A model generated the notes under the pieces. That model saw only the letters and a program-made list of their open reading frames with translations. It did no database searches and was not told the DNA's origin. Positions 1,942-64,000 of a stretch of 64,000 bases of DNA are shown here, piece by piece. Position numbers and translations under genes: made by a program. The stretch comes from Planctomycetota bacterium (lineage in GTDB: Bacteria; Planctomycetota; UBA8108; SXIK01), in assembly GCA_965223265.1 (NCBI GenBank), contig OZ244999.1:6816001-6880000 (forward strand). Reading direction: 5' to 3'. Within the stretch, counting starts at the first letter, position 1. The number at the start of each line of letters is the position of its first letter.

Positions 1942-2078
1942 TCCGATTCACTCAGCTTTCTTCTGCGACGCGCCAGCCCACTCACGCCGGACACAGCACT
2001 GATTCTTCTTGTTGACGACATCTGCTGAGATCTGCGCCGCGCATCGCGGCCATCATACTGCGAAGGCCTGGATGCAGT

Positions 2079-3158: not shown

Positions 3159-3502
3159 ATCTCCGCGCCAGGAAGGGTTCGCCGCGCCGTGGTCGCATCG
3201 TCACCGAGACTCATAAGACGCGCTGCGAGCAGTTCATAGAAGAAACCGTTTTGCCCGATATAGGTGCAGAATACCAGTCTCGGAAACGCCGGAAACCCGA
3301 CGCATCGGCGGTTCACGCGCCTACGTGCGATTCAGCGCCGGTTTTGTCTTTCGCTCTCGGGTTCGGTAAGATAGTTTTCTTGGCCTGATTCTGGCCTCGA
3401 GTTTGGCCCGAACGCACCGAAGCCACAACCCGCTCATGCAGGCGCCACCGCGGAAGCGTCGTCGAGTCAACGCCGCTGGATTGAATTCTTCAGACGTAGC
3501 GC

Positions 3503-4933: not shown

Positions 4934-5010
4934 GATGGAAACGTAAGGACTCAATAGGCCTTCGAGGCAGCGTTTCCAACGACCGCACTCGCCTGATCAA
5001 TAGGTAGGTC

Positions 5011-5955
5011 ATGAAGAATCGCCGTCAGCTACGCCTCGGCACGCGTGGGAGCCCTTTAGCGTTGTGGCAAGCCCGCTGGATCGCAGAACGGCTGCAGGAA
5101 ACGACGCAGCGGAGCGTAGAGCTACATGTCGTCAAGACGGTCGCCGAGAAGTTCCCTGAGCGCAGTCTCACAGCCATGGGTGTTGGCGTCTTCACCAGGG
5201 AACTCGACGACGTGCTCCTTCGCGGTGAGATTGACTTAGCTGTTCACAGCTTGAAGGACGTGCCGTCAGAGCTTCACCCGCAGCTGACGATCGCGGCCGT
5301 GCCGCTGCGCGCGAGCGCATGGGACGCATGGATCTCCGCCGACGGCGTGAAGTTCGGCGCGCTGCCGCCTGGCAGCCGCATCGGGACAGCAAGTCCGCGG
5401 CGACAGGCGCAGCTGCTCGCGTATCGCCGCGATCTCGAGTTCACACCGCTACGCGGCAACATCGACACGCGCCTCGAAAAGATGCGCCAGCTCGGACTCG
5501 GAGGCATCGTCCTCGCGCAAGCAGGGCTCGAACGTTTAGGTCGGGGCGATCTAATCACCGAGGCGCTCGAGCTCGAATACCTCGTGCCAGCGGTAGCGCA
5601 GGGAGCACTCGCGGTCATGACCCGGCTCGACAACCTTTCGCTGCGTGAGGAGCTGTGTGCCCTCGAGGATGTCCAGAGTCGAACGTGTGTCGACTGTGAG
5701 CGATCTTTTCTGCAGCGTCTGCGCGGCGGTTGTCAGGTACCGGCTGGGGCCTACGCGAGGTACGTCGACGGGGGTCGAGTGCACATCGTTGGAGCGCTGG
5801 CGACGACTGACGGCCGTACATGTTTGCGCGATGAGCTCGAGGGTGCGAGTGCAGACGCCGCAGCGCTGGGCGCCCTTTTAGCGCAGCGATTGATCGGCGC
5901 CGGCGGCGAAGCCATTCTCGCCGAGCTACGAGGAGGCGGCGCTGTTGAGAGCTGA
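5011..5955 (+). CDS. hemC: hydroxymethylbilane synthase (porphobilinogen deaminase)
   Basis: GTRGSPLALWQA, DLAVHSLKDVP, RGNIDTRL, LRGGCQVP. Confidence 0.96.
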   Translation: MKNRRQLRLGTRGSPLALWQARWIAERLQETTQRSVELHVVKTVAEKFPERSLTAMGVGVFTRELDDVLLRGEIDLAVHSLKDVPSELHPQLTIAAVPLRASAWDAWISADGVKFGALPPGSRIGTASPRRQAQLLAYRRDLEFTPLRGNIDTRLEKMRQLGLGGIVLAQAGLERLGRGDLITEALELEYLVPAVAQGALAVMTRLDNLSLREELCALEDVQSRTCVDCERSFLQRLRGGCQVPAGAYARYVDGGRVHIVGALATTDGRTCLRDELEGASADAAALGALLAQRLIGAGGEAILAELRGGGAVES

Positions 5956-6050
5956 GATAGATGCGACGCTTGCGAGCAAACCATCGACGCGCAGGACCGA
6001 ACGGGGACGACGGGCCCGGGACTGAGCAGAGAAACTGAGCAGAGAAGACG

Positions 6051-6842
6051 ATGGCGATGCGTAGCAACCTCAAAAACCGAATCGTGGTGGTGACGAGGAG
6101 CCGCGAAGAGAATCGACGCCTGGCCGCACGCCTGCGAGAGTACGGAGCGAGCGTCATCGAAGTCCCGACCCTGCGCTTTGTCCCGACGCCGCCTTCTCCC
6201 GAAACTAACGCGCTCATTGCAACTGCGGACGTCTACACCCACGTCGCATTCACCAGTCCACGCGCGGTCCGTTTCTTCGCTGCGCGTCTCGAGGACTCCA
6301 CGGTCGCGCCGGAGGGCTGGAGGCGTCTCGCAACGGCTGTCGTCGGACCGCAGACGGCGAGGGCCGCGCTGCAGTACGGCTGGAACCCAACGATTGAGTC
6401 GAGGGGCGGCGGCGCAGCGCTGGCGCGGGCGCTCGCCCCGAGTGGTGCCGTTGAAAAGAACACCCACGTGCTACTCCCGGTGTCAGCCATCGCCTCGTCC
6501 GATCTAGCCGAGACGCTCGTGAGCGCAGGCGCCCAGGTCACACGACTCATCGTCTACGAAACGCAGACTGAGGGACCCGATGCGGCGACGGCGCTCCTAA
6601 CGCACCTCAACGCGCATCGCGCGCCCGATGCGATCGCGTTCGCCAGCCCCTCGGCCGTAAGCACGTTTCTCCTCCTCACTGGCGCACCCGGCCAAGCGAT
6701 GCTCGCAGACAAAAACGTTCGGATCGTATCGATCGGTCCGACGACATCTTCCGCCGTCACTGCGGCTGGCCATCACGTGGACGCGGAGGCGGCACAGCCC
6801 GGCATGGACGAGTTGGTGCAGGCGATCGCGACGGTGCTGTGA
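6051..6842 (+). CDS. hemD: uroporphyrinogen-III synthase
   Basis: VVTRS, FTSPRAV, VGPQTA, VYET, FASPSAV, SIGPTT motifs; follows hemC. Confidence 0.9.
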   Translation: MAMRSNLKNRIVVVTRSREENRRLAARLREYGASVIEVPTLRFVPTPPSPETNALIATADVYTHVAFTSPRAVRFFAARLEDSTVAPEGWRRLATAVVGPQTARAALQYGWNPTIESRGGGAALARALAPSGAVEKNTHVLLPVSAIASSDLAETLVSAGAQVTRLIVYETQTEGPDAATALLTHLNAHRAPDAIAFASPSAVSTFLLLTGAPGQAMLADKNVRIVSIGPTTSSAVTAAGHHVDAEAAQPGMDELVQAIATVL

Positions 6843-50104: not shown

Positions 50105-52072
50105 CCGAACTTCCAAAGAAAGGCACTCGTAAATTCAGCGCAGGTCCGGCTTTGCGATGCACCGCAATCGTCAATTCTGACTACATGCGCTCGGTCAGCG
50201 ACACGCGCAGTAAACGAAGCGCTTGTCGCTGTTCGGGCGACGGCTCGGTGATCACCTCGAACTCAGCCTTGGAGCTCAGCGGGGAAGCGACGCGATTGCG
50301 AGCGATCGTGGCCAAGTCCTGCAGCAGGGTTCGAAAACTATGGGCACACTTGCCGTCGAGAGTGCGCTTGGTCCAGTCCTTCCACTTCGCCATCTCGGAG
50401 CGAACGGCTGGTGTCACCGGCGACTTTCTCCGGTTCACTTCGTCGGCGAACTCATCGTGAAAGAGCATCGGCTTTAGCGCTTGTTGCATGTGCCACTGGA
50501 CGTAGTAGGCGAGCATGCAGAGAAATACGTGAGCTCTCACACGTTTCTCTGCATAGTGAAAAATTGGACGCACTTCGAGATCGACCGTCTTCATACTGCG
50601 AAAAGCCCGCTCCACCTTGCTGAGGCTTTTGTATGCCCTCACGGCTTGCCGGGCACTTAGCTTTCGTTTCGGCACAGTCGTTCGCAGGACGTAGAATCCG
50701 TCCAAGGCGGCTTCACGTTCGATTCGTGGTGCATTGCGCCGGAAACGAAACGTGCTCTCTGCGATCGTCAGGTCAAACAGCTTACCCACCTTGAATCGAC
50801 CTATGACTTTACCGACTCGAATGCCAATCTTCGCCCGGCTCCGAAGTCTTCCTGCTTTGACTGCGGCAGCGACTTTCCAGAGGTGCTTTTCGGTAGCCTG
50901 CAGCAGCTCCTCGCGCTTTCTCCTGCGCTCTTCGGCCAGGAGAGGGTTACGGCAAACGATGAGGCGTTCGTTGGGAAACGAAGGATCATCTATTTCGGCG
51001 AGATTCTGCTGGTCAAAGAACTCAAGCTGAATGCTTCCCGACTCTTTCAGCTTTTGGATCTGGGGCGCTCGCAGCGCTGTGATCCAGTCCACACCGTCAA
51101 TGTCTTTGAGCTCTTCGCGAATTCGCGCCGTGGTGATCATGCCGCGATCTCCCACGAGAGTCATTCGCGACAGTTCGAAATCTTCTCGAAGTCGCTTCAC
51201 CTGGGCTCCGAGAGTCTTGGGGTCTGCAGTGTTCCCCTCAAACACTTCGACAGAAACTGGGCAGCCGTCTTTGTTCGTCAAAACGCCAAATACGATCTGC
51301 GCTTTATGCTTTTTCTCGTCGCGGCTGTGACCCCGTCTTGCCAGCGAACAGCAGCGGCCTTCAAAGTACGTCGAAGTTAAATCGTAGAGCGTTAGCTCAC
51401 CGTCTTTGAGGTGACGCTTGGCCAACTTGACTTGGATCTTTCTCTGACGCTCAACGAGCCAATCCATCGCCTTGTAGAGATCGTTTTCATCTACGTTCTC
51501 CAGCCCCAGTAGCTGCGGAATCGTCGTCGCCTTCCAGGCCCTTGTTGTAGCTAGCTTCGACTGTGGAGAAATAATCCTCGCGGCGATCATCGCCAAGGCG
51601 CACTGGCGCTCACTACTCGCCCGCCCATCAAGGATCGTGTCGAGACCAAGATTGCGCATGGTGCCCAGCACCGCGGCGACGTGACCGTGGCTGCGAGTGG
51701 AGAGAATCTTGAAAGCGTCACTCGCAGAGACGAACTGCTCTCCCTTCAAGGCGCGGCGAACGAGGTCGATCACTTCCAGCGGCAAATGAGAGAGATTGGC
51801 CAGCGTGACGTTACGAACCTTCTTGCCGTCGCGATATGTGCGTCGAAGGAGGTGGCTCTGATAGGTCTTACCCTTGTATTTTCTCTTCGTTGTGACCACA
51901 TGGGCCGATCCACCTCTCTTCGCCATGAGCAGCATTATGCGCATCTTGACGTGAAAGGCAAGGAGGAATCCTCCATTTTAGTGACTACATCTCGGGGCGC
52001 AAAAAACTCTGCAACCTCCTACGTTGTCAATCCTTGCGGCCGAAACCCGCTCAGGCAAGCGTGGAAGTTCGG
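50105..52072 (-). mobile_element. complete IS1634-family insertion sequence (1968 bp)
   Basis: TIRs CCGAACTTCCA / TGGAAGTTCGG; TTTAGC target duplication at 49542-49547 and 52073-52078 around the whole composite. Confidence 0.93.
50181..51944 (-). CDS. IS1634 family DDE transposase
   Basis: TLANLS, YDLTSTYFEG, GHSRD, FEGNTAD, VGDRGM, DGFYVLRT, YKSLSKVERAFR, RPIFH. Confidence 0.95.
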   Translation of the reverse strand: MRIMLLMAKRGGSAHVVTTKRKYKGKTYQSHLLRRTYRDGKKVRNVTLANLSHLPLEVIDLVRRALKGEQFVSASDAFKILSTRSHGHVAAVLGTMRNLGLDTILDGRASSERQCALAMIAARIISPQSKLATTRAWKATTIPQLLGLENVDENDLYKAMDWLVERQRKIQVKLAKRHLKDGELTLYDLTSTYFEGRCCSLARRGHSRDEKKHKAQIVFGVLTNKDGCPVSVEVFEGNTADPKTLGAQVKRLREDFELSRMTLVGDRGMITTARIREELKDIDGVDWITALRAPQIQKLKESGSIQLEFFDQQNLAEIDDPSFPNERLIVCRNPLLAEERRRKREELLQATEKHLWKVAAAVKAGRLRSRAKIGIRVGKVIGRFKVGKLFDLTIAESTFRFRRNAPRIEREAALDGFYVLRTTVPKRKLSARQAVRAYKSLSKVERAFRSMKTVDLEVRPIFHYAEKRVRAHVFLCMLAYYVQWHMQQALKPMLFHDEFADEVNRRKSPVTPAVRSEMAKWKDWTKRTLDGKCAHSFRTLLQDLATIARNRVASPLSSKAEFEVITEPSPEQRQALRLLRVSLTERM

Positions 52073-52109: not shown

Positions 52110-53630
52110 TCATGGCTCAGCCGACAGGCTCGCCAGTCGAACGTAGACATCGCGCAGTCGCTCCTCCACCTCGCCGTGCACCTCATGCACGCGGTCATAG
52201 GTCGCTGCGGCAGCGCGGTTCGGGGCGACGGTTCGCGCTGTCGGCTGCAGCTTGCTCATGGCAGTCCGCACGTCCGGGAACAGCCCGGCGGCAACGGCTG
52301 CAAGACACGCACTCCCGAGACCGGTGGCCTCGTCGTGCTGTGGCAACGCCAGAGGCACACCAAAGACATCCGCGCGAATCTGCGCCCAGAGCTCACTGCG
52401 CGCACCACCGCCGACGAGCCGCAGCTGTTTCACGTCGACTTTTGCGTCGCGAATGCGCTCGAGTAGCCGGCGCGAGGCAAACGAGCTGCCTTCGAGAATC
52501 GCACGGTAAATGTGAGCCAAACCGTGTTGCGGCGATAAGCCAACCAGCGCGCCGCGTTCTGCTGGCTCCCAGTTCGGAGCGCGGCTACCGACGAGCGTGG
52601 GGAAGAAAAGGAGCTGCTCGGCGCCGGCGTCGAGACGTGCAGCCTCGGCGTCAAGTCGCGCCAGAAGCGCCGCACGCGACGCCCCTGCTGCCTCACTGCC
52701 ACCAAACCGATCGCAGAACCACTCGACACAGCCGCCACTAAGCGACATCGGTCCACCCGCCAGCCAGCACCCGTCCACGGCGTGGGGATTGACGAGAAAA
52801 CCCGCCTGAGGATCGAGCACCGGTGACGACGTGCACGCAAAGACGACGTCGGTCGTGCCAATCACGCTGACCGCGTCACCCGGGGCGACGACCCCGGCGC
52901 CGAGTGCCGCGACCGTCCCATCCGGCCCCCCCACCGCAACGGGAAGTCTCGCCTCGAGTCCAAGGTCGGCCGCGGCGTCGGGAGAGAGACCGCCAGCGAC
53001 CTGGGCTGCCGCGTGTATCGGCGGGAACTTGCTCGATTCGAGACCGAGGACAGAGAAGAACGGCTCGTGCCACACCGACTTGGCGACGTCCGCCAGCAGC
53101 GTGTAGCCTGCGTGCGTGCGGTCCGTCACCATGGCGCCGGTGAGCTGAGCCACAAGATAGTCCTTCAAGCTGAGGAATTTGTCCGTGCGCGCATAGAGGC
53201 TCGTTTCATGGCGCTGCAGCCAGAGTACAAGACAAGCGACGCGTTCGGGATCGATGCGCTTGCCGGTCGCTTCGTAGACGCGCTGCTCCCCGAGCTTCTC
53301 GCGCACGAAGTCGGCTTCGCGGCAGGCGCGCTTGTCGATCCACGTCAGCGCGGGACGGAGAGGACGGCGCTGATTGTCGACGGCGACCAGTCCGAGCTGC
53401 GCGCTGACGCCGATCGCGGCGATGCGAGCTGCGTCGATGCCGCTGAGCGCCTGACGCACAGCATCCTTCATGGCGGCGAGCGCGGCGCGTGGCTCGAGTT
53501 CGGACTGCGCTGCGGCCACCGCGGAGGAGTACGGCGACTCAGCGAGTGCGGAGCACACGCCGTCCGTTGCGATCACGGCCGCTTTGACTGCCCGTGTACC
53601 AGCGTCGATCGCCAGCATCAGGTCGCGCAT
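52110..53630 (-). CDS. FGGY-family carbohydrate kinase (xylulokinase-like)
   Basis: AIDAGT..VKA, W.DKR, KDYL..LTG, GGPDG, IGTT, FFPTLVGSRAP, RAILEG, VGGGARS. Confidence 0.92.
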   Translation of the reverse strand: MRDLMLAIDAGTRAVKAAVIATDGVCSALAESPYSSAVAAAQSELEPRAALAAMKDAVRQALSGIDAARIAAIGVSAQLGLVAVDNQRRPLRPALTWIDKRACREADFVREKLGEQRVYEATGKRIDPERVACLVLWLQRHETSLYARTDKFLSLKDYLVAQLTGAMVTDRTHAGYTLLADVAKSVWHEPFFSVLGLESSKFPPIHAAAQVAGGLSPDAAADLGLEARLPVAVGGPDGTVAALGAGVVAPGDAVSVIGTTDVVFACTSSPVLDPQAGFLVNPHAVDGCWLAGGPMSLSGGCVEWFCDRFGGSEAAGASRAALLARLDAEAARLDAGAEQLLFFPTLVGSRAPNWEPAERGALVGLSPQHGLAHIYRAILEGSSFASRRLLERIRDAKVDVKQLRLVGGGARSELWAQIRADVFGVPLALPQHDEATGLGSACLAAVAAGLFPDVRTAMSKLQPTARTVAPNRAAAATYDRVHEVHGEVEERLRDVYVRLASLSAEP

Positions 53631-53835
53631 CGCTAGACTCCAGCGTCAATCAGCGTTCACGGAGGGTTCACGCCCGGACTCGTTTCATTCACGTTCCCGG
53701 TTCTTCGGCAGTGCACTCTTCGCAGCAGCGGAGGTAAACCAAGCCGAGGAGCCCTCTGTGGGCCCACCCGCCTTCTCGTCGAGTGCTCCACGCCCACACT
53801 TGGGCGCATTCACGTAGAATTCACCTTTACAGCGG

Positions 53836-54651
53836 CTACCGAACCTTCGCCTCGAGAAGCATCCCGTCTGGATCGATGCTCTCGCGGATGAGAGCTACTT
53901 GCTCCGGTGTCGGCGGGGGCGTCTCCTCGATCTCGTCAGGAATCAAAAGATCAAACCCGGTCTTCTGCTTGACGGTGTCGACGGCAACGCCCGGGTGTAC
54001 GGATTCAAGCCGCATGCGTTTCGACTCTGGGTCGAACCCAAGAACAGCGTACTCCGTGAACACCTTCGCGGGCCCGCCGCCAGGCAGGCCGGCCTTCTCA
54101 CGAGCATCACCACCGTCGAGAAAACCGACGCCCGATATGAAGTCCACCTTCTCGACAAACTGCCGAGGGCTGTGCTCCATCGTGATGAAGGTACGCTTGG
54201 CGAACGCCGCGTGGTCGGTCTGCGCGAGGCATCCTACAAGCCTCACCTTTGGCGACTCGTAGGGACCGATGCAAACGATATTGAGGTTGCCGTACATGTC
54301 GATCTGGGCGCCGGAGATCGCACCGACGTCCATTTTGCCGCACTTGAAAACGTCGAGCGCCTCCTGCTCAGGAATCTGTGCCTTCGAGCGCCAGTGGACC
54401 AGCTCGTAGTCATCACGCAACGAGGACGGGAGCGTCCTCAGATCCGGATCGATCAGCGGACCCAGCATCGGCACGAGGTTCGGCGCATGCGAAAGTTGCG
54501 CCAGCCGACAGGCGACGAGCGGGATTCCGACGGCGAGAATGAAGGCCCGGCCGCCGGTGCCGATACCGATGAAAACGACCTCCTCGTCCCGCAGGTGCGA
54601 AGCGTACGCAACCGCCATGAGTTCTTCGGTGCGATAATCGTCGATCACCAT
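53836..54651 (-). CDS. CoA-transferase-fold beta subunit (GctB-like) lacking the catalytic Glu
   Basis: FIGIG, GAQIDMYGNLN, FVEKVDFISG, MRLESVHPGV; PMLGP in place of the ESG motif. Confidence 0.88.
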   Translation of the reverse strand: MVIDDYRTEELMAVAYASHLRDEEVVFIGIGTGGRAFILAVGIPLVACRLAQLSHAPNLVPMLGPLIDPDLRTLPSSLRDDYELVHWRSKAQIPEQEALDVFKCGKMDVGAISGAQIDMYGNLNIVCIGPYESPKVRLVGCLAQTDHAAFAKRTFITMEHSPRQFVEKVDFISGVGFLDGGDAREKAGLPGGGPAKVFTEYAVLGFDPESKRMRLESVHPGVAVDTVKQKTGFDLLIPDEIEETPPPTPEQVALIRESIDPDGMLLEAKVR

Positions 54652-55553
54652 CAGCTGACCTCCTTTGGCCTCTCGAGCCCCAAGAGCCGCTTCACCCCTA
54701 TGCGTTCGAGGTAAGCGAAGTGATCGTCGACGCCGAGCACGTTGTGCTCAAGCCACGACGCGAACTCTTCTGCTGATTTAGTCCGCTCGTGATACTCCCG
54801 GAGAAAGTCGAGGTCGTAGTCGTAGCGGCAGTCGCAAGCTGTTGGGTGGGCGCCGAATGGCGCTTCGACGATGTGGTCGACGAAGAACTTCGGCAAAATC
54901 GTCAAGTGTGGACGTTCACTCACCGCCTCTTCGCTCACAACTTGTTCAACGGAAACGATCACCTTCTTCGCCGACTTAGCGATCAAGGTGTCGACCTCAT
55001 TGTCCAGCTCACGGATCGGATCCAACTGAACGTTGCCGACGAAGTCGGCGGTGTGAGCATGGATCAACGCGAAGTCCGGACGAAAAGCTGGCAAGACGCA
55101 AAATTTCTCGCCGGTGAAGGGGCAGTCCATGCGCCGCACACGATCGTTGTGAGCCTCGATACCTGAACCGAGCGGCGTTTTCGAAGGGTAGAACGTCCAG
55201 CCCATGCTTCCAGCACGGAAGGCGTCAATCGCGGTCGTCTCGGAGTGCTCGTAAATCTTCAGCTCCCCACGCTCAACCGCGCGGCGATAGTGATTCGCCA
55301 GGCCGATCATGGCTAGGCCAATGTAGGAAGTCTCGACCGCTTGGACGCAGCCCGCGCCAATGAGCAGATCCATATCGATGGCGTTGTTCCAGCCAAGAAG
55401 TGTCAGGCCTCGTTTCTTCTGCCTGATCATCTCGTAGATCATCGCCATCGGGTGGCGACGAATGAGCGACCCCCCGATCGCGACCGTCGCACCGTCGGGA
55501 ATCAACTCGACGGCGCGAGCGAGTGTCGTGCGTTTGTCCTTTTTCGCGGTCAT
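54651..55553 (-). CDS. CoA-transferase-fold alpha subunit (GctA/IpdA-like)
   Basis: DGATVAIGG, RRHPMA, PDFALIHA..AD..GN, VIVSVE, EAPFGAHPT; start at 55553 or 55562. Confidence 0.88.
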   Translation of the reverse strand: MTAKKDKRTTLARAVELIPDGATVAIGGSLIRRHPMAMIYEMIRQKKRGLTLLGWNNAIDMDLLIGAGCVQAVETSYIGLAMIGLANHYRRAVERGELKIYEHSETTAIDAFRAGSMGWTFYPSKTPLGSGIEAHNDRVRRMDCPFTGEKFCVLPAFRPDFALIHAHTADFVGNVQLDPIRELDNEVDTLIAKSAKKVIVSVEQVVSEEAVSERPHLTILPKFFVDHIVEAPFGAHPTACDCRYDYDLDFLREYHERTKSAEEFASWLEHNVLGVDDHFAYLERIGVKRLLGLERPKEVS

Positions 55554-55587
55554 GTCCTGCAAGCCTTACCTGTCTGATCGAACCAAG

Positions 55588-55655
55588 GTGGCAGGCACAG
55601 TCTGTGTGCCGCCCGCTTTTGCTATTGGCTACGGCACACAGAGTGTGCCTGCTAC
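55588..55655. repeat. inverted REP doublet (REPIN/BIME-like)
   Basis: GTGG-CAGGCACAGTCTGTGTGCCG, 20-nt spacer, CGGCACACAGAGTGTGCCTG-CTAC. Confidence 0.85.
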
Positions 55656-55662
55656 TCTCCGC

Positions 55663-56469
55663 TCAGTCGATCTTGGCGCTCAGAAGGAGGCCCTCCGGGT
55701 CGACTCGCCCGCGCAGCACTTCGAGTTCCGAGGCCATCGGCGCCGTGAGCGTCGCTACGCCATCGACCCCCAGCGGCTCAAAACTCATCAGTTGACGCAA
55801 CTCGCTCGGATCGAAGCCGGGAAGGCAGTTCTTCGCACGCATGCGTTTCGTCTCGTCATCAAACTCGAACACCGCGCCGTTCGTCACGACGCGCCAGGGA
55901 CCCTGAGGCGGCAACCCCACACGCTCGCGCGCGCCAGGACCAGAAAGGTACCCGGCGCCTGAAATGAAGTCGACTTGTTCGACGAACGTTCGCGGCGAAA
56001 GATCATTGACGATACAGTTCCGTGCCGGCGAAGCCAAGTGGTCGGTCTGCGCGATCGGGCCGACGAGTCGTACTTTCGGACGGCGTTCGGTGCCGATGGC
56101 GACGACGTTGAGATTGCCGTAGACGTCGACCTGCGAACCAGAGACGAAGCTGACGGTTATCTTGCCGAGCTTGAAGCAGTCGAGACACTCTTCGACAGGG
56201 ATCTGCGCTTCGCACGGCCACGAGATCAGCTCCGAGTCCGTGTAGGATCGGGGCTGCGACGCGGGGTCAGGATTGACGATCGGGCCAAGCATGAGCGTGA
56301 GTCCCGGGGCGTGTGTCAGCCGGGCCAACTGACAGGCGGCGGTCGGAATGCCGACCGCCAGGACGAACGCTCGCCCACCTGTACCGATGCCAACGAACGC
56401 CACATCGGTCGAGCGCAACTCCCGAGCGATCGCGATCGTCATCAGCTCTTCGATCGTCGCGGGCGTCAC
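55663..56469 (-). CDS. CoA-transferase-fold beta subunit lacking the catalytic Glu
   Basis: GTG start after GAGGAG; FVGIG, LMLGP, GSQVDVYGNLN, FVEQVDFISG. Confidence 0.87.
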   Translation of the reverse strand: MTPATIEELMTIAIARELRSTDVAFVGIGTGGRAFVLAVGIPTAACQLARLTHAPGLTLMLGPIVNPDPASQPRSYTDSELISWPCEAQIPVEECLDCFKLGKITVSFVSGSQVDVYGNLNVVAIGTERRPKVRLVGPIAQTDHLASPARNCIVNDLSPRTFVEQVDFISGAGYLSGPGARERVGLPPQGPWRVVTNGAVFEFDDETKRMRAKNCLPGFDPSELRQLMSFEPLGVDGVATLTAPMASELEVLRGRVDPEGLLLSAKID

Positions 56470-56470
56470 G

Positions 56471-57358
56471 TCAGCTCCTCCCACCCTTGGCCGGATCGTT
56501 TCGCGCACCGATCTTCTCGAGGTAGTCGGCATGACTCCCAGGACGCCGGACATACTCGTCCACGAATGCGTCGAATGTAGCGGCGTTCTTCGAGGCAGCA
56601 TAATAGAGCGCGGTGAAATCGAGATCGTAGTCGTAACGCAGATCGCAAGAACACGGGTGGGCGCCCTGCGGCGCCTCGACCACTGCGTCGACGAAAAACC
56701 CGGGCAGAATTGTCGCCTGTGGTCTCTTCATGACGGTCTCCGTCGACACGATTTCCTCGACGCTGACGATCACGCGTTTGGCACTTCGGGCAATGAAGAC
56801 ATCAGCAAAATTGTCCATGAGCACACGCTCGTCGATCTGAACGTTACCCTTCGCATCAGCAGTGTGCGCGTGCAAGAGCGCGACGTCTGGCTCTGCGGCA
56901 CGCAACGCTGCCATGCGTTTGCCAGTGAACGGACACACGATCTCGCGCGTTTCCGCCTCGAAGTTCATCAGGCCGCTACCGAGCGGGCCGTTCGAAGGGA
57001 TGAACGAGATGCCCATGGCCCCGGCACGAAATCGCTCAAGTGCGGTGTTCTCCGAGTCCTCGACGATGTCGATCGAACCGGCTTCTGCGGCGCGCCGATA
57101 GTTGAGCGCTAGACCGAAGCGCCCCATACCAACGTACGACGTCTGCACAGAGCGGACGCAGCCGGCGCCGACCAGAAGGTCGAAGTCGATGCCGTTGTTC
57201 CAGCCGCTCAGTCGTAGATCGCGTCGGCCTTGGCGCACGAGCTCGTACACCATCGCCATCGGATGGCGACGCTGGGAGTGGCCGCCGAGCGCCAACTGCG
57301 CTCCATCGCCGATCGTACCGACGGCCTCCTCAAGCGACGTGATCTTCTTTGCTTCCAT
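56471..57358 (-). CDS. CoA-transferase-fold alpha subunit (GctA/IpdA-like)
   Basis: DGAQLALGG, RRHPMA, PDVALLHA..AD..GN, EAPQGAHP. Confidence 0.88.
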   Translation of the reverse strand: MEAKKITSLEEAVGTIGDGAQLALGGHSQRRHPMAMVYELVRQGRRDLRLSGWNNGIDFDLLVGAGCVRSVQTSYVGMGRFGLALNYRRAAEAGSIDIVEDSENTALERFRAGAMGISFIPSNGPLGSGLMNFEAETREIVCPFTGKRMAALRAAEPDVALLHAHTADAKGNVQIDERVLMDNFADVFIARSAKRVIVSVEEIVSTETVMKRPQATILPGFFVDAVVEAPQGAHPCSCDLRYDYDLDFTALYYAASKNAATFDAFVDEYVRRPGSHADYLEKIGARNDPAKGGRS

Positions 57359-57429
57359 GACCTAACACTGTTTTTCGCAAACCTTGCGGCTGTGCGCCCG
57401 CGCTGGCGGCCAGCGCTCAGCACATCCCG

Positions 57430-57511
57430 TCAACAAAGGCTCCGTCGAAGTGCCCTATCAAAAAGGCTCAAAAAGGCCCCATCAAAAAGGCCCCATCAAA
57501 AAGGCTCCGTC
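57430..57511. repeat. short tandem repeats of TCAAAAAGGC overlapping the ThDP gene stop
   Basis: Four TCAAAAAGGC units plus one degenerate TCAACAAAGGCTCCGTC. Confidence 0.8.
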
Positions 57512-59184
57512 CAGACGTTCTCATCAGGGTCGATGAGAACGTCGAGCAAGTACGTGCCGTTATGGGCAAGCGCCCTTTCGACCGCTGGCTGCAAGTCCCC
57601 GGGAGCTTCGACGCGCTCACCGTCGGCCCCGAAACCGCGCGCCACCTGTGCGAATTGGATGTCCGTAAAATCGACGCCGATGTAGCGCGGCCCGAAGTAC
57701 GTCAGCTGCTCCTGCTTGATGTTGCCGTAAGCCATGTTGTTCATGACGATGATGAGAACGGGCGCCTTCTCGCGCACTGAAGTCTCGATCTCGCTGACGC
57801 ACATCCCAAGGGAACCGTCACCGATGATGCAGGCGACGGGATGTTCTGGACGTGCGAGTTTGGCCGCAATTGCAGCTGGCAAGGCGAACCCCATGTTGCC
57901 GAAGCCAACCGGCTTGATGTAAGTCCCTGGCTCGAAAATCGGCAGCAAGTGAGTCCAAATCCCAGGGTTGCCCGCGCCGGCTGCGATGATCGTCTGGCGC
58001 GGTAGAGCCGCGCGCAGCGCCTGCATGAAAAACTGCGGCTTGATCGGCTGAGCGGTCGCGTACTCTCGCTTGAAGATCTTCTTCTCCCACTCCGCTTGCG
58101 CCGCCTCGAGCTCTTTGACGCGCTGGCGGCGCACCTCGAGGCCCGCAGCTGCCGGTGCGCAGCCCGCGAGGGCCGCGAGGAGCTGCGTGGTGACGACGGT
58201 GGCGTCGCCGACAACGCCGACTTCAACGGGATAGTGCCGACCGATGTTGGCAGCGTCCACATCGACCTGTACGAGGCGACGCGGGAGCTGCAGCTTCCAG
58301 CGTCCGGTCGACGGCGCATTGAGGCTGTTACCGATCGCCAGCACGACGTCGGCCTCCTCGAGCACGCGGCCGGTGACCTCGGTACCGTGGCGACTGCGCG
58401 GTCCGAAGACCAAGCGGTGGTCCGCCGGGACCACCCCAACGCCGTTGTACGTCGTCACTAGAGGCGCTTCCAACAGCTCGGCGAGTTGGACCAGCTCGGC
58501 GGTGCCGCGCGCCACGAGCGCGCCCCGCCCCGCCCAGATCGCCGGCCGCTGCGCGTCAGAGAGCAGCTCGGCGGCAGCTGCGATCGCCGCGGCATCGCCT
58601 GCGGGTCGCGCTTCCGTGCGGTAAACAAGCGGTGTCGACGGAACGTAGTCTACAGTGGCATCCTCGAGAACGTCGCGCGAGAAGTCGAGGTGTACCGGTC
58701 CTGGGTTCCCCGTCACAGCACGGCGGAACGCCTCGTGGACGGCATCCGGAATCCGTTCGGCAATGGTGACCAGACAGGACCACTTCGTGAACTGTCCGAG
58801 CAGCTTGCAGTGATCTGCCTCCTGCGCGTCGTCACGCTGAAAATCACGCGCACGATTGTTGGCCGTGAGCACGAGCATTGGGCTCGAATCGCGCTGCGCC
58901 CCGCCGATTCCCGTGACCAGGTTCGTGACACCTGGCCCAGTGGTCGCGAGGCAGACGCCAGGGCGACCTGTCAAACGTCCGTAGGCGTCAGCCATGCACG
59001 CCGCACCGCGCTCGTCGCGTGTCGTGATGAAGCGGATCTCGCTGGCGTCAAACAGCGCGTCCATAATGGCGAGATTCTGACCACCCGGAACGCCGAAGAC
59101 AAACTCAACGCCTTCTCGACGCAAACAATCGACGACGGCCGCACCGCCGCGACCTTGAACTCGATCTGGAAGAGATTCTCCCAT
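57496..59184 (-). CDS. thiamine-diphosphate-dependent enzyme (acetolactate synthase-like superfamily)
   Basis: FGVPGGQN, TRDERGA, TTGPGVTN, GPVHLD, GFGNMGFALPAA, GDGS...NN motif; start uncertain. Confidence 0.9.
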   Translation of the reverse strand: MGESLPDRVQGRGGAAVVDCLRREGVEFVFGVPGGQNLAIMDALFDASEIRFITTRDERGAACMADAYGRLTGRPGVCLATTGPGVTNLVTGIGGAQRDSSPMLVLTANNRARDFQRDDAQEADHCKLLGQFTKWSCLVTIAERIPDAVHEAFRRAVTGNPGPVHLDFSRDVLEDATVDYVPSTPLVYRTEARPAGDAAAIAAAAELLSDAQRPAIWAGRGALVARGTAELVQLAELLEAPLVTTYNGVGVVPADHRLVFGPRSRHGTEVTGRVLEEADVVLAIGNSLNAPSTGRWKLQLPRRLVQVDVDAANIGRHYPVEVGVVGDATVVTTQLLAALAGCAPAAAGLEVRRQRVKELEAAQAEWEKKIFKREYATAQPIKPQFFMQALRAALPRQTIIAAGAGNPGIWTHLLPIFEPGTYIKPVGFGNMGFALPAAIAAKLARPEHPVACIIGDGSLGMCVSEIETSVREKAPVLIIVMNNMAYGNIKQEQLTYFGPRYIGVDFTDIQFAQVARGFGADGERVEAPGDLQPAVERALAHNGTYLLDVLIDPDENVWTEPF

Positions 59185-59206
59185 GCTTCTGCCAAACACC
59201 TCCGCG

Positions 59207-59992
59207 TTAGTCCCTCGGCAAGTAGACACCGGACGGGTCGATCACCTCGCGCAGAAGTCGAACGTCTTCTGCACTCGGACCGACTGTCGTCGGTGCCTCG
59301 TCTGGCAGGAGTAAATCGAATCCCGTGTTCTCTTTCACCTCGTCGAGACTGACTCCGGGATGCAGCGATTCGAGCCGCATGCGCTTCGTCGCGTCGTCGA
59401 ACCCCAAGATGGCGAGGTTGGTGATCACGCGCACAGGTCCCGCGCCGCGCAGTCCGTTCGCCTCACGCTCACCAGCCCCGCCGAGGTGACCGGGAGTCGT
59501 GACGTATCCGACGCGGCTGGGAAACTTGCGCCGCTCGTGCGGCACGATCACGACGACGCGTTTAGCGAGCGACGCGATGTCGTTGGCGCCGCCACTTCCC
59601 GGTAGGCGCACCTTCGGCCGGCGGTAGTCGCCAATCGCCGTCGAGTTGATGTTGCCGTACTGGTCGATTTCTGCCGCTCCCAGAAACCCCAAGTCCACGA
59701 AACCCCCTTGGAGAAGACTCAGCGCGTAGTAGAGCCCTGAAGTCTTGGTGCAATCTGTCATCAGACAAAAGTCGCCGACGCCGGTCGCCAACGACTCCGG
59801 CTGCGCATCGATGATCCCCGACTCGAAGAACATGGTGACGCCGGGGGCGTGCGTATACTTGGCGAGGTAGGCGGCAATCATCGGCAGACCGGTACCGATG
59901 ATGGCGACTTCGCTGTCACGGATCTCGCGCGCCGCGGCGACCGCCATCAATTCTTCGCGACTACACTCCTGAATCTGTTGCTGACTGCTCAT
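59207..59992 (-). CDS. glutaconate CoA-transferase-like beta subunit with catalytic Glu
   Basis: IGTGLP, FFESGII, FLGAAEIDQYGNINST, LPGSGGANDIAS. Confidence 0.9.
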   Translation of the reverse strand: MSSQQQIQECSREELMAVAAAREIRDSEVAIIGTGLPMIAAYLAKYTHAPGVTMFFESGIIDAQPESLATGVGDFCLMTDCTKTSGLYYALSLLQGGFVDLGFLGAAEIDQYGNINSTAIGDYRRPKVRLPGSGGANDIASLAKRVVVIVPHERRKFPSRVGYVTTPGHLGGAGEREANGLRGAGPVRVITNLAILGFDDATKRMRLESLHPGVSLDEVKENTGFDLLLPDEAPTTVGPSAEDVRLLREVIDPSGVYLPRD

Positions 59993-60178
59993 GACTCGAC
60001 TTAAGCTCGAAGCTTCTCTAACGGACCTCTTGAAGACAACCGCGCCAGCGTCGAATAGCGGCATCGAACACAGCGTCGAACGGCGACGCGACTCGAGCCG
60101 AGGACTTCAGTGCAGCGCGTCTGAGCGTGAGGTCTCGAATGGTGGCTGTATCGCATCTTGATCCGAAGCACTGAGCCG

Positions 60179-61084
60179 CTAGTATCCGAGATACGGATCT
60201 GCACGCAGAGACGTCAGCCGTCGCAGGCCAATCTTGTCGAGGTAGCTCCAGTGGTCCTCGACGTTGTAAACGAACTCGTCAAGGTACTCCTGAAACGACT
60301 CCTCCTGTCTGGACGCATCCCAATAGTGTTGGATGTGCTCGCTATCATAGTTGTAGTAACGAAACATGCCGGCGGGATGGGCGCCGAAAGGCAACTCGAC
60401 AACGGCGTCAACCACGAATGACGGCAGGATGGTCGCTTCGGGGCGCCGCGCGATCTGGCGTCGGTCGACGACCTCTTCCACAGAGACAACCACCTTGCGC
60501 GCTGCGCGCGCCTGCTCGTCGATAATCGAAGTCATACCGAAAATCTGCGTGTTTCCTTCGCGATCGGCCCGGGCCGCGTGAATGAACGCAACGTCCGGCT
60601 GCACGGCACGCACTGAAACGTACGACTCACCCGTGAACGGGCACTGCGACATCCTATGCTTGTCGGCGTCGAAGCTCGTCACTTTCAGAATGTCGGTCCC
60701 CGCCATGACTTTCGTCGGCATCGACGACAGTCCCAAGGATCCCGCCATGAATCGCGATGTGATCCCGAAGTGACTGTAGTCCTCGACTTCCAATTGACCG
60801 CTCTCGACAGCGCGTGAAAAGTTTCGACAACGACCGAAACCTTCGAACATATAGTTCGACAGACGGGTCCGCCGCAGACGTCCGGCGCCGCTGAGAAGAT
60901 CGGCCGCCCAGCATTCGCCCATCGAGCTCAATTCGAGATCCTTCGCGCCTTGGCGAATGATCTCGCGGACAAGTGCGATCGGCGCGAGAGAATGCGCGAA
61001 GCCGCTGAACGTCAGATGACTACCATCCTTGACGACGGCCGCAGCCTCAGTGAGTGAAATCAGCTTGTCAGGAGCGGCGGTCAT
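60179..61084 (-). CDS. glutaconate CoA-transferase-like alpha subunit
   Basis: KLISLTEA, REIIRQG, EDYSH, PDVAFIHA.RAD.EGN, LPFGAHP. Confidence 0.9.
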   Translation of the reverse strand: MTAAPDKLISLTEAAAVVKDGSHLTFSGFAHSLAPIALVREIIRQGAKDLELSSMGECWAADLLSGAGRLRRTRLSNYMFEGFGRCRNFSRAVESGQLEVEDYSHFGITSRFMAGSLGLSSMPTKVMAGTDILKVTSFDADKHRMSQCPFTGESYVSVRAVQPDVAFIHAARADREGNTQIFGMTSIIDEQARAARKVVVSVEEVVDRRQIARRPEATILPSFVVDAVVELPFGAHPAGMFRYYNYDSEHIQHYWDASRQEESFQEYLDEFVYNVEDHWSYLDKIGLRRLTSLRADPYLGY

Positions 61085-61308
61085 AGAACGCGCGGTTGTT
61101 CCTCAACAGTGGTTGTAGTTGAGCGCAGTTGAACCGAATATAGTAGCTTGTCCGGGGCACGCGAGGTAAGTAAAATCTCGCTTCGAGAATGCGGTCGAGA
61201 TGGGCGGCTGCCGGCAGATTTCTTCGCCGTAGGGGCGGCCGGTTTTTCGTCGCTCATACTCCGCTACAGTCCGCAAGACGAATCGATCAACCTGACTGAG
61301 GAGAGGCA

Positions 61309-62343
61309 ATGCCATTCCGAATGATCTGTATCGCGGTGCCCTTTTTCGCCTTTGGCTGCACCGATGGCGGTGGCGACAACGCGAGCGAGACATTCACCGT
61401 GCGCATGGCGACGCTCTTCGGGAAGGAACATCACTTGGCGCAAAAGCTCGAGTGGATGAAGACTGAACTCGAGAAACGAAGCGGTGGACGTTTTCAGTGC
61501 AAGGTCTTTCCTGGGGGTACGGTCGGCGGCGAGAAGGAGAATCTCGAAGACCTTCTCAGCGGCAACCTCGAAGTGATGAATGGCGCCGGAAGCTACTTCT
61601 ACCACTTCGTTCCTGAGGCGAGCGTTCTGGAGTTACCTCACTACCGTTGGCAGAGCAAAAAGCAGGCATGGGAAACTATCCGTGCCTATTGGCCGAAGTT
61701 TGCAGAGGTGTCGGAGAAGAAAGGCTACACCCCCATCGGACTCGATATCCGGGACTACTGGGGCGTCTTTTACAAAACCCCCGTCGACTCCCTAGCCGCC
61801 GTGAAGAACGCCAAGTTCCGCTCCGTCAACGCCGACCTGTGGATCAAGCTGACGGAGGTCTACGGCGCGGTCCCCAACCCGATTCCCTACGCCGACGCAT
61901 ACATGGCGTTCAAGACCGGTGTTGCGGAGGGCTCGCTCGGCTCGGTGACGGGCGCCGTCGCTGCGAATTGGCACGAAGTCCTGAAGTGCTTCTTCGACAC
62001 CCGGCTCGTCTTGAGCGAAAGTCTTATGCTGGCGTCGACCAGCTGGCTCAAGGGGCTGCCGGAAGATCTACGGACTTTGTTTCTCGAGGTGTCGCGCGAG
62101 AGTGAAGAGTTTAACTTCAAAGCGGTCGAGAAGCAGTACGCCGCCAACAAGCAGGAGATGCTCGACGCCGGTGTCAAATGGATCAAGCGTGAAGACATCG
62201 ACATGAGCGAACTCGACGCGAAAGTACCGGCCTGGCGTGACGAGTACATGCAGGCGAAAGGCCCGGAAGTCTTTGCGTTCTACAAGGACTGGCTGTCGCA
62301 CGTGGAAGAATACGCAGCCAAGTTCAATGCTGAGAACGGCTAA
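61309..62343 (+). CDS. TRAP transporter substrate-binding protein DctP (lipoprotein)
   Basis: Lipobox AFG-C, FPGGTVGGE, KFRS, GAVPNPIPYADAYMAFKTGV. Confidence 0.9.
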   Translation: MPFRMICIAVPFFAFGCTDGGGDNASETFTVRMATLFGKEHHLAQKLEWMKTELEKRSGGRFQCKVFPGGTVGGEKENLEDLLSGNLEVMNGAGSYFYHFVPEASVLELPHYRWQSKKQAWETIRAYWPKFAEVSEKKGYTPIGLDIRDYWGVFYKTPVDSLAAVKNAKFRSVNADLWIKLTEVYGAVPNPIPYADAYMAFKTGVAEGSLGSVTGAVAANWHEVLKCFFDTRLVLSESLMLASTSWLKGLPEDLRTLFLEVSRESEEFNFKAVEKQYAANKQEMLDAGVKWIKREDIDMSELDAKVPAWRDEYMQAKGPEVFAFYKDWLSHVEEYAAKFNAENG

Positions 62344-62400
62344 TCACGTCGACCGGGTGGCTCCGAGGATCCACGCAGTAGCCGACGAACAGGGATCACG

Positions 62401-62976
62401 TTGACGCCCAGCGCCGCGCACCTCAACACCTACACGAAGGTCACGCGGCGGCTCGTCGAAAGCGTGGCGGTGCTGCTGTTCGTCACCGTCTTGTGCCTAC
62501 AGGCGGTCAACATCTTCCTGCGCTATGTCCCCGCACTGTCGCCGTGGATGTGGGTGGAGGATTTGACCAAGTACGCGCTCATATGGAGCTTCTTTCTCCT
62601 CTGGCACCTCGCTGATCGCAGCGGTAGTCACTTCTCGGTCGATGTGCTGACATCGAGGCTGCCGCCGAAAGGGCGGAAGTTTCTCGACTGCGTCGGACAT
62701 GCCATTGCGATCTTCTTCGCCGCAGCCGTGATCTACAGCGCCGTTCGATTCATTCCCACCGGCATGCAGTACCCGACGAACTCGTTTTCGTGGATCCCGA
62801 TGGGAGTGATCTACTTCGTGATTCCGGTGGGGCTCAGCCTCGTCCTCATCGAACGCGTGCTGCTTCTCGTAGCTCGCCTGAGGCGGACAGCTGACGAAAG
62901 CGCGGCGCCGCCTGGTCTCGACGTGGAGAGTTCAACTGACGAGTTAAGCGACTCCTCAGGAGGCGTTCCAACGTAA
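62401..62976 (+). CDS. TRAP transporter small permease DctQ
   Basis: Four TM helices, WVEDLTKY..IW, HFSVD. Confidence 0.88.
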   Translation: MTPSAAHLNTYTKVTRRLVESVAVLLFVTVLCLQAVNIFLRYVPALSPWMWVEDLTKYALIWSFFLLWHLADRSGSHFSVDVLTSRLPPKGRKFLDCVGHAIAIFFAAAVIYSAVRFIPTGMQYPTNSFSWIPMGVIYFVIPVGLSLVLIERVLLLVARLRRTADESAAPPGLDVESSTDELSDSSGGVPT

Positions 62977-62984
62977 CTGCAGCC

Positions 62985-64000
62985 ATGCTGACTGTCGCGA
63001 TTCTCTTCGGCCTTATGCTCTTTCTGGTCCTCCTCGGCGTGCCGCTGGTTTACAGCATCGGCGCCGCGGCAGCGGTCGTCATCTTCGCTCAAGACGACAT
63101 GAACGTGACACTCCTCGCGGCGAGGATGTTCAAGGGCGTCGACAACTTTGTCCTCGCATCGATTCCCTTCTTTCTCCTCGCCGCAGAGCTGCTCACCAGT
63201 GGCGGACTCGTGCACCGCATCGTTCGCTTCGCGCAGCTGCTCATCGGCCACGTGCGCGGCGGGCTGGCGCAGGCAAACATCTTAGTGAGCATGGTCTTCG
63301 CAGGAATTCAGGCCTCGTGCACTGCGGACAGCGCCGCAATCGGCGGTGTCTTGATTCCTGCCATGACCAAAGAGAAGTACGACAAAGACATCAGCGTCGT
63401 CGTCACCGCGACGTCTTCGTGTTGCGGCCCGATCATCCCGCCGAGCATCCTGATGATCCTCTACGCCTTTCTCACCGAGACTTCCGTGGCGAAGCTCTTT
63501 CTCGGCGGCGCGATCCCGGGACTCCTGCTCGGCTTCGCCCTCATGGCGATCACGCACTTCTGGGTCGTACGGCGCGGCTACAAAAAGAGCCGTGAGCGGA
63601 TGGCTCCAGCACGCGAGATCGGTTCCGCCGCTGTGTCGTCGTCGCCGGCGTTCCTCGTGCCTCTGATCATTCTGGTCGGTCTTGTCGGCGGGATCGTCAC
63701 ACCGACGGAGGCTGGAGTTCTTTCTTGCGTCGCCGCACTCGTCGTCGCCGGTCTCTTCTACCGCGAGCTGACGCCTTCGCGCTGCGTCGGCGCCGTCAAA
63801 CGCGCGGCACACACGACCGCGCTCATCTGGGCCGTGATCGCCGTATCGACGGTCTTCTCAGAAATTCTCGTGCGCAATCTGTTTGCAGACGCGCTCATCG
63901 AGACGATCGCCGTGATCACTACAAGTCCGACCGGCGTGCTATTGATCATTGCGCTCGTCGTGTTTCTGCTCGGCATGGTGATCGACACGACACCGCTCCT
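62985..64000 (+). CDS. TRAP transporter large permease DctM (runs off window)
   Basis: Manual translation: LASIPFFLLAAEL, GGLAQANI, ADSAAIG, GPIIPPSI, TPTEAG. Confidence 0.92.
   Translation, partial: MLTVAILFGLMLFLVLLGVPLVYSIGAAAAVVIFAQDDMNVTLLAARMFKGVDNFVLASIPFFLLAAELLTSGGLVHRIVRFAQLLIGHVRGGLAQANILVSMVFAGIQASCTADSAAIGGVLIPAMTKEKYDKDISVVVTATSSCCGPIIPPSILMILYAFLTETSVAKLFLGGAIPGLLLGFALMAITHFWVVRRGYKKSRERMAPAREIGSAAVSSSPAFLVPLIILVGLVGGIVTPTEAGVLSCVAALVVAGLFYRELTPSRCVGAVKRAAHTTALIWAVIAVSTVFSEILVRNLFADALIETIAVITTSPTGVLLIIALVVFLLGMVIDTTPL

Follow-up and report, generated by a model that had tools for sequence, protein, structure and literature searches.

A planctomycete gene cluster with two non-canonical CoA-transferase-fold pairs most likely breaks down a sugar-like acid by a route not yet described

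The window analyzed here is a 64,000-nucleotide stretch of planctomycete DNA (G000:C1:6816001-6880000) within a 9.18 Mb single-contig genome. At its right end, eleven genes encode three heterodimers of the coenzyme A (CoA)-transferase fold (A1B1, A2B2, and A3B3), a thiamine diphosphate (ThDP) enzyme, an FGGY-family sugar kinase, and a tripartite ATP-independent periplasmic (TRAP) importer. The cluster most likely breaks down a sugar-like acid by a route not yet described. We tentatively read the eleven genes as a single redox-neutral module that catabolizes an imported, sugar-like carboxylic acid, with a confidence that falls somewhat short of even.

One canonical and two non-canonical pairs

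Judged by its sequence, A3B3 has all transferase hallmarks of a glutaconate-type (family I) CoA-transferase. The PF01144 fold is found in both subunits. The catalytic residue of the Gct enzymes is the glutamate of the β subunit, according to a study of this family (PMC7756340). In an alignment with GctB (1poi_B), the FFESG motif of B3 falls on the VESG motif of GctB, and the PGSGGAND loop is kept. Residues were counted over every locus sequence collected, with one short A-like fragment from genome G915 set aside. All four A3B3-type pairs have F-E-S-G, PGSGGANDI, and a histidine in the α subunit.

The β subunits B1 and B2 (50-51% identical) have lost the glutamate. The site reads PML-GP in B1 and LML-GP in B2, leaving a gap or a leucine at the glutamate column. 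Unlike B3, both hold an 11-residue insert, GIGTGGRAFxLAV, and their loop is (C/P)(L/I)AQTDH instead of the glycine loop (VGCLAQTDH in B1; PGSGGANDI in B3). A1B1 and A2B2 thus lack both the catalytic glutamate and the GSGGA loop of a family I CoA-transferase.

The α subunits carry a glutamate instead (EHSET in A1, EDSEN in A2), aligned with the glutamate of MDEG in IpdA (6co6_A), which we take to be catalytic in that protein. The same column holds alanine in 6coj_A (the single residue by which it differs from 6co6_A), histidine in A3 (YSHF), glutamine in GctA, and glycine in AibA. All 22 non-canonical α subunits have this glutamate, and all 22 non-canonical β subunits lack the transferase glutamate and have a loop ending in (D/E)H. 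Of the 120 database sequences closest to B1 (49-100% identity, B1 included), none has the glutamate, 115 have the histidine, and 112 have aspartate or glutamate preceding it. B1-type relatives are labeled "CoA-transferase" or "glutaconate CoA-transferase subunit B". On these residues, A1B1 and A2B2 are to be placed in a distinct, widespread branch of the CoA-transferase fold, without the transferase residues. The preliminary description of this DNA had proposed one canonical pair among the three heterodimers, and A3B3, with its glutamate and GSGGAN loop, agrees with that split. It had, however, overlooked the non-canonical branch and assigned it no role.

The CoA-transferase fold can lose transferase activity, because IpdAB and AibAB have done so. 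IpdAB is described as a retro-Claisen ring hydrolase (PMC6678751), and AibAB as a 3-methylglutaconyl-CoA decarboxylase, a non-transferase member of the Gct family with Cys56 at the glutamate site of AibB (PMC7756340). A1B1 and A2B2 share with IpdAB the β subunit without glutamate and the α glutamate at the IpdA position. Their kinship and context are different. The best solved relatives of A1 are AibA (5mzw, 139 bits), GctA (1poi, 131 bits), and IpdA (6co6, 97 bits), and B1 scores 121 bits with GctB against 64 bits with IpdB. GctB and AibA therefore outscore IpdB and IpdA, and no steroid-degradation genes lie nearby. AibAB is not matched either, as B1 and B2 have no cysteine at the former glutamate site.

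The ThDP enzyme, the kinase, and the importer

The ThDP protein matches all three ThDP-enzyme domains and scores below the cut-off of all 25 NCBIfam models listed. The best of these is TIGR00118, for biosynthetic acetolactate synthase (ALS; 408 bits, cut-off 538.35). The Xsc model TIGR03457 gives 355.8 bits, with a cut-off of 676.4. The closest solved relatives are BbmA (8x3x, 282 bits), E. coli ALS I (273 bits), and plant and yeast AHAS (230-250 bits); glyoxylate carboligase (~203 bits) and OXC and HACL (~173-196 bits) are lower.

A true IlvB is encoded elsewhere in the genome (C1:815034, 765.6 bits), indicating that the ThDP enzyme of the cluster is not the anabolic ALS. Biosynthetic IlvB was accordingly rejected as the identity of this gene, an identity that the preliminary description had named as fatal to its own reading. 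Three more ALS-like ThDP paralogues (G000:C1:4863879-4865468, 4309853-4311457, and 1818560-1820200) fall under the IlvB cut-off and have no B-type neighbors; B1, B2, and B3 are the only three B-type genes of the genome.

It is very improbable that the locus is a second anabolic ALS or a biosynthetic cluster, with unrelated neighbors in a chance mosaic beside a transposase. Biosynthetic ALS is the best NCBIfam match and a DDE transposase abuts the kinase, as such a mosaic would have it. However, the score falls short, the IlvB of the genome lies elsewhere, and the cluster has no small-subunit gene, the neighbors of the ThDP gene being CoA_trans genes. In addition, the same neighbors are found again, at 57-84% identity, in metagenomes and in one alphaproteobacterial genome, and co-conservation (see below) already contradicts a mosaic.

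To place the ThDP protein, a tree of 20 sequences was built; its references were IlvI, Gcl, PoxB, and Oxc from E. coli and an Xsc from Rhodococcus. The window protein and its counterparts from metagenomic loci L079 and L080 and from G915 form a clade of their own, T1, with support of 100/100. The window protein is 57-64% identical to these counterparts and 32-35% identical to all others compared. T1 lies outside the group of IlvB/IlvI and Gcl, and it joins Xsc, a paralogue from the same genome, and rhizobial enzymes (T2) weakly (83/88). E. coli Oxc is the most distant of the five references, in a tree that has long branches, few references, a single OXC, no HACL, and no IolD. The tree excludes "anabolic ALS", gives "HACL" no support, and assigns no reaction.

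The placement bears on the specific chemistry first suggested for the cluster, a cycle like that of Frc and Oxc with the ThDP enzyme as a 2-hydroxyacyl-CoA lyase. In such a cycle, CoA would come from formyl-CoA, the lyase would release formyl-CoA and a ketose or aldose, the kinase would phosphorylate the sugar, and the non-canonical pairs would epimerize or isomerize the acyl-CoA or the sugar. The E. coli frc-oxc-yfdV-yfdE layout does put a CoA-transferase beside a ThDP enzyme of the ALS superfamily and a transporter. The family III transferases of the rhizobial clusters described below score about equally (278-301 bits, all under the cut-off) on the formyl-CoA transferase, succinate-glutarate, and oxalate models, and a redox enzyme is neither needed for the cycle nor encoded in the cluster. 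Nevertheless, we consider the cycle doubtful. The ThDP enzyme does not group with Oxc or HACL, and therefore the lyase step is unsupported: ALS-type chains score 230-282 bits against ~173-196 bits for OXC and HACL, and Oxc is the most distant reference. In the reverse direction, OXC and human HACL make glyceryl-CoA from glycolaldehyde, and give no erythronyl-CoA from glyceraldehyde and formyl-CoA, according to PMC7154664 (Table 1). The cycle also leaves the most conserved partners, the non-canonical pairs, without a necessary role.

By its sequence, the FGGY kinase appears xylulokinase-like, yet it is under the cut-off of the XylB family (TIGR01312, 316.8 bits; cut-off, 380.25). Both the N- and C-terminal FGGY domains are present. 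Among solved proteins it is closest to xylulokinase of E. coli (2itm, 199 bits), followed by AI-2 kinase (178 bits), and the counterparts in L078, L080, and G915 are 41-43% identical to the window kinase.

The genes for DctP, DctQ, and DctM stand together (PF03480, PF04290, and PF06808), as in a TRAP transporter. The arginine of KFRSV in DctP aligns with that of KIRV in 4n8y, the conserved arginine of solved TRAP binding proteins, and on this alignment it may bind the carboxylate of the ligand. Single-sequence structure prediction of DctP gave low confidence (predicted local distance difference test score, 40). The importer probably takes a carboxylate.

Recurrence of the gene set and a proposed pathway

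The cluster is a real co-conserved unit, rare but recurring. A metagenome scan with an alignment of B1 and B2 found four loci, L078-L081, whose B1 counterparts are 73-90% identical to B1. L078 reads ThDP-A2-B2-A1-B1-kinase, at 65-84% identity with the kinase lower (44%). L079 reads ThDP-A2-B2-A1-B1, and its A2-B2-A1-B1 frames overlap or abut. L080 reads LctP-family permease-A3-B3-ThDP-A1-B1-kinase, without A2B2. L081 is a 1.9 kb fragment with B2-A1-B1. In L079, alone among the loci in having neither transferase nor kinase nearby, a gene for a 524-residue large subunit of the methylmalonyl-CoA-mutase type (L079:11924-13498, minus strand) is convergent to the ThDP-A2-B2-A1-B1 run.

Two non-canonical pairs are also found on each of three plasmids, those of Azospirillum argentinense (p5), Shinella sumterensis, and Microvirga sp. 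VF16 (L099-L101). These plasmids encode in addition a family III CoA-transferase, an "acetolactate synthase catalytic subunit" (NF004772, 932 bits), DhaK, DhaL, LacI regulators, and a CUT2 ATP-binding cassette (ABC) importer. The compact cluster of Azospirillum p5 encodes no redox enzyme. In a sample of the order Hyphomicrobiales, B1-type genes occur in 4 of 401 genomes, and a ThDP gene is present in all four islands. Genome G1134 has a block like A3-B3-A1-B1 (48-63% identity). G915 has a T1-type module, in which the ThDP protein is 57% identical to that of the window and its gene is divergent from an FGGY kinase gene (41%), with A3B3-like genes (51-60%) close by.

The G915 island (contig 12, 232500-272499; L116 and L120) holds both versions of the module in one alphaproteobacterial stretch. 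Version 1 has a T2 ThDP enzyme, the pair rAy-rBy, and a family III transferase; version 2 has a T1 ThDP enzyme, an FGGY kinase, a family III transferase, the pair rAx-rBx, and the A3B3-like genes. The island has several ribose-type ABC systems, which suggests a family of related substrates.

Eleven loci with a non-canonical pair are informative: the window, L078, L079, L080, the three plasmids, and the four Hyphomicrobiales genomes. An ALS-like ThDP enzyme is present in all eleven and a kinase in ten, and a true CoA-transferase is present in nine of ten, one truncated locus being set aside. The alphaproteobacterial loci are mutually related, and every locus was found through its B-type gene. 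As the same gene set recurs in unrelated loci, the arrangement is beyond chance. Its parts are interchangeable. Transferases of family I (A3B3) and family III alternate, as do FGGY and DhaKL kinases, and import is by a TRAP, LctP, or CUT2 ABC system.

Elsewhere, such genes are scarce. None of 60 relatives has any B-type gene, a match to B2 included. B1 matched 8 of 400 other genomes of the phylum at 1e-40, and all eight matches are closer to B3; they keep the G[SA]GG loop, and a simple glutamate pattern did not match in them. A contig scan with B2 peptides gave 72 loci, and the 70 with matches are single B3-like genes or weak pairs, with no ThDP enzyme or kinase. P0069, a relative of B1 type, matched none of 301 genomes of an Anaerolineae sample at 1e-70. 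The ThDP protein matched none of 401 genomes of a sample of the class Alphaproteobacteria at 1e-130, with three candidates scored per genome, and no T1-type ThDP enzyme was found among plasmids at 1e-100.

The recurring set comprises an importer, a true CoA-transferase, a ThDP enzyme, a kinase, and the non-canonical pairs, of which there are one or two. Of these five functions, three are filled by unrelated families depending on the host, and the compact versions (the window cluster and Azospirillum p5) have no redox enzyme. Therefore, the loci point to one redox-neutral type of pathway. From the residue patterns, clades, and co-occurrence we infer each reaction, the order of reactions, and the class of substrate, as follows. 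The acid would be imported by the TRAP system, as suggested by the presence of that system, the aligned arginine of DctP, and the LctP permease of L080. A3B3 would then load the acid onto CoA to give a thioester. A1B1, with A2B2 as an optional paralogue, may act on this thioester without CoA transfer, as a hydrolase (retro-Claisen), a decarboxylase, or an isomerase, in the manner of IpdAB and AibAB. The ThDP enzyme, before or after the pair step, would make or break a C-C bond adjoining a carbonyl to give a short ketose or triose, which the kinase would phosphorylate for entry into central metabolism.

The use of DhaKL as the alternative kinase indicates, from the chemistry of DhaK, a small sugar whose carbonyl is free, for example dihydroxyacetone, glyceraldehyde, or erythrulose. 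Possible substrates that we weighed, without preferring any, are branched 2-C-hydroxymethyl aldonates, tetronates, 2,3-diketogulonate, ulosonic acids, sulfonates, and quinate or shikimate.

The carboligase kinship of the ThDP enzyme could also fit a route resembling acetoin formation. Here the ALS-like enzyme would condense a 2-oxo acid with a second one or with an aldehyde to give an α-hydroxy-β-keto acid; the pairs would decarboxylate it, as AibAB or acetolactate decarboxylase does, to a ketose; and the kinase would phosphorylate the ketose. In accordance, BbmA and E. coli ALS I are nearest to the ThDP enzyme, AibA from a decarboxylase is the best solved relative of A1, and L079 has the ThDP gene with two pairs alone. 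Even so, this route is improbable. It gives no role to the true CoA-transferase found in nine of ten informative loci, AibB has cysteine where B1 and B2 have a gap or leucine and a different loop, and the TRAP, LctP, and ribose-type ABC importers do not suggest a 2-oxo acid.

We therefore keep the CoA-ester module with a non-transferase step as the preferred reading of the cluster, and several observations weigh against it. In L079, no CoA-transferase or kinase is encoded within 6.6 kb upstream and 8 kb downstream. The ABC binding protein of the alphaproteobacteria is like ribose-binding protein (2ioy, 194 bits), which on sequence grounds suggests a neutral sugar rather than an acid, yet the compact Azospirillum cluster encodes no enzyme that would oxidize it. 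T1 and T2 (NF004772) ThDP enzymes are only 33-35% identical and join weakly (83/88), so that the planctomycete and rhizobial cluster types may not be isofunctional. Orthology of B1 and B2 to the rhizobial pairs is not resolved in a tree of B subunits, and the kinases are mutually only 39-45% identical.

The general proposal of the preliminary description, in which an imported acid is catabolized by way of CoA esters, ThDP chemistry, and a kinase, is retained, and its lyase assignment is not. Its acid import is in keeping with an importer that is probably of the carboxylate type, TRAP here and LctP in L080. It had also regarded a lack of co-conservation as decisive against it, and the genes are co-conserved, as the ThDP and kinase counts show.

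A wider proposal is possible, and we rate it well below the module itself. The pairs with an α glutamate and a β Asp-His may constitute, next to IpdAB and AibAB, a third functional class within the fold, with a new reaction on a sugar-acyl-CoA. A CoA-transferase, a private ThDP clade, and a kinase for a ketose or triose would combine with them into a hitherto unknown CoA-dependent, non-oxidative route from a sugar acid (or sugar) to a ketose phosphate, in marine planctomycetes and rhizosphere alphaproteobacteria, with interchangeable transferase, kinase, and importer.

If true, a family of well over 100 sequence clusters labeled CoA-transferase is mis-annotated and has a different chemistry, and sugar-acid catabolism gains a branch that depends on CoA and thiamine and proceeds without redox chemistry. 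The pathway would be present in cultured, genetically tractable hosts (Azospirillum, Shinella, and Microvirga), so that bench work on these hosts could settle what the planctomycete genes do. It would also shed light on what enters marine planctomycetes through an otherwise anonymous TRAP system.

Locus layout and comparison with known systems

On the minus strand, the genes run A3-B3-ThDP-A2-B2-A1-B1-kinase, divergent from dctPQM on the plus strand, and all eleven are present in the content, order, and place first described (Table 1). Each has a Pfam match, with E-values of 4e-9 to 4e-92. The stop of A1 overlaps the start of B1 by one base, and a single base separates A2 from B2. The start of B2 was set at the GTG at 56469, in an open frame that extends to 56601. 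The longest ThDP frame begins with GTG and overlaps the end of B3 by 23 bases, which makes its start uncertain; the true start is perhaps the Met at 59184, 15 codons further in, which would abolish the overlap. The dctM gene runs past the window end and stops 1280 bases into the stretch directly beyond it (L002).

Table 1 Genes of the cluster and other features of the window (positions are those of the window).
Feature	Position	Strand	Evidence
Haem-synthesis genes (HemL-like class III aminotransferase, uroporphyrinogen decarboxylase, glutamyl-tRNA reductase, porphobilinogen deaminase, uroporphyrinogen-III synthase), unrelated to the cluster	643-6842		
DDE transposase	50181-51944	-	PF01609
FGGY-family sugar kinase	52110-53630	-	PF00370 2e-46, PF02782 1e-39
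B1, β subunit of non-canonical pair 1	53836-54651	-	PF01144 2e-18
A1, α subunit of non-canonical pair 1	54651-55562	-	PF01144 1.5e-34
B2, β subunit of non-canonical pair 2	55663-56469	-	PF01144 4e-9
A2, α subunit of non-canonical pair 2	56471-57358	-	PF01144 5e-33
ThDP enzyme, ALS-like superfamily	57496-59229	-	PF02776, PF00205, PF02775
B3, β subunit of putative canonical glutaconate-type CoA-transferase	59207-60064	-	PF01144 3e-32; GctB 1poi_B 1.2e-54
A3, α subunit of putative canonical CoA-transferase	60179-61084	-	PF01144 4e-28
DctP, TRAP solute-binding protein	61309-62343	+	PF03480 2e-40; NF037995 above cut-off
DctQ, TRAP small membrane subunit	62401-62976	+	PF04290 1.4e-23
DctM, TRAP large membrane subunit	62985-64000, past window end to L002:1280	+	PF06808 3.8e-92 (full 421-residue frame)

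The DDE transposase adjoins the kinase and forms the left border of the block. Past dctM, the right border is a tandem-repeat array followed by DUF1501/PSD1 genes, and PSCyt2 domains are also found among the neighbors; all three domains are typical of planctomycetes. The array (L002:1505-1989, about 6880505-6880989 of G000:C1) has ~8 tandem copies of a ~48-base unit, which contains a short hairpin (GGCACAC..GTGTGCC), with variable runs of the hexamer CGCACT between copies. It reads through as a false open reading frame of 237 codons with the repeated peptide HSHSLARPDGTRSVPATLAT.

From 44.8 kb of the window to 18 kb past its end, no regulator and no redox enzyme is encoded, and the earlier claim that dehydrogenase, thiolase, and hydratase are lacking holds over this range. 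Ten of the 31 long open reading frames in the first 45 kb of the window were inspected; these have housekeeping roles, haem synthesis among them. Nothing usable came from scans for promoters, terminators, and inverted repeats in the operon and the divergent region. The GC content of the cluster is not distinct. The flanking transposase and the absence of any B-type gene in the 60 relatives suggest that the cluster arrived by horizontal transfer.

A full-text literature search, with most subscription journals outside its reach, found no described pathway with this gene set, so that the match to a known pathway that would have told against the preliminary description did not turn up. The nearest systems each share a part of the cluster.

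GctAB (1poi) resembles A3B3 over its full length, with the glutamate and the GSGGAN loop. GctAB belongs to glutamate fermentation, whereas A3B3 shares its locus with a sugar kinase, a ThDP enzyme, and two paralogous pairs that are degenerate.

IpdAB (6co6, 6con), the COCHEA-CoA ring hydrolase of steroid catabolism, resembles A1B1 and A2B2 as a heterodimer of the fold with no β glutamate and with an α glutamate in the same column, and it acts on an acyl-CoA without CoA transfer. Unlike B1 and B2 with their QTDH loop, IpdB has a G/A-rich loop, and the steroid-degradation setting of IpdAB is absent from the cluster. AibAB of Myxococcus xanthus (5mzw) differs from A1B1 and A2B2 in having Cys56 in place of the gap or leucine, and glycine in AibA in place of the glutamate of A1 and A2. 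It is also biosynthetic and, unlike the window pairs, has no ThDP or kinase partner.

The oxalate module of E. coli, frc-oxc-yfdV-yfdE, is the nearest described layout of transferase, ThDP enzyme, and transporter. In contrast to the cluster, its transferases are of family III, its ThDP enzyme is of another clade, and it has neither non-canonical pairs nor a kinase.

The proposed deoxyribonate route of Klebsiella michiganensis is the nearest described case of a sugar acid handled as a CoA ester (Price et al. 2019, PMC6365646); its cluster, too, encodes both a CoA-transferase and a terminal kinase. It differs from the window cluster in using a CoA-synthetase, a dehydrogenase, and a thiolase, in ending with a glycerate kinase, and in having neither a ThDP enzyme nor degenerate pairs.

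A further likeness is to the alphaproteobacterial islands, which are annotated only generically and have no function on record. Like the cluster, they carry a true CoA-transferase, an ALS-like ThDP enzyme, and a kinase along with two non-canonical pairs. They differ from it in having mostly family III transferases, ThDP enzymes of the NF004772 type, mostly DhaKL kinases, a ribose-type ABC importer, and LacI regulators.

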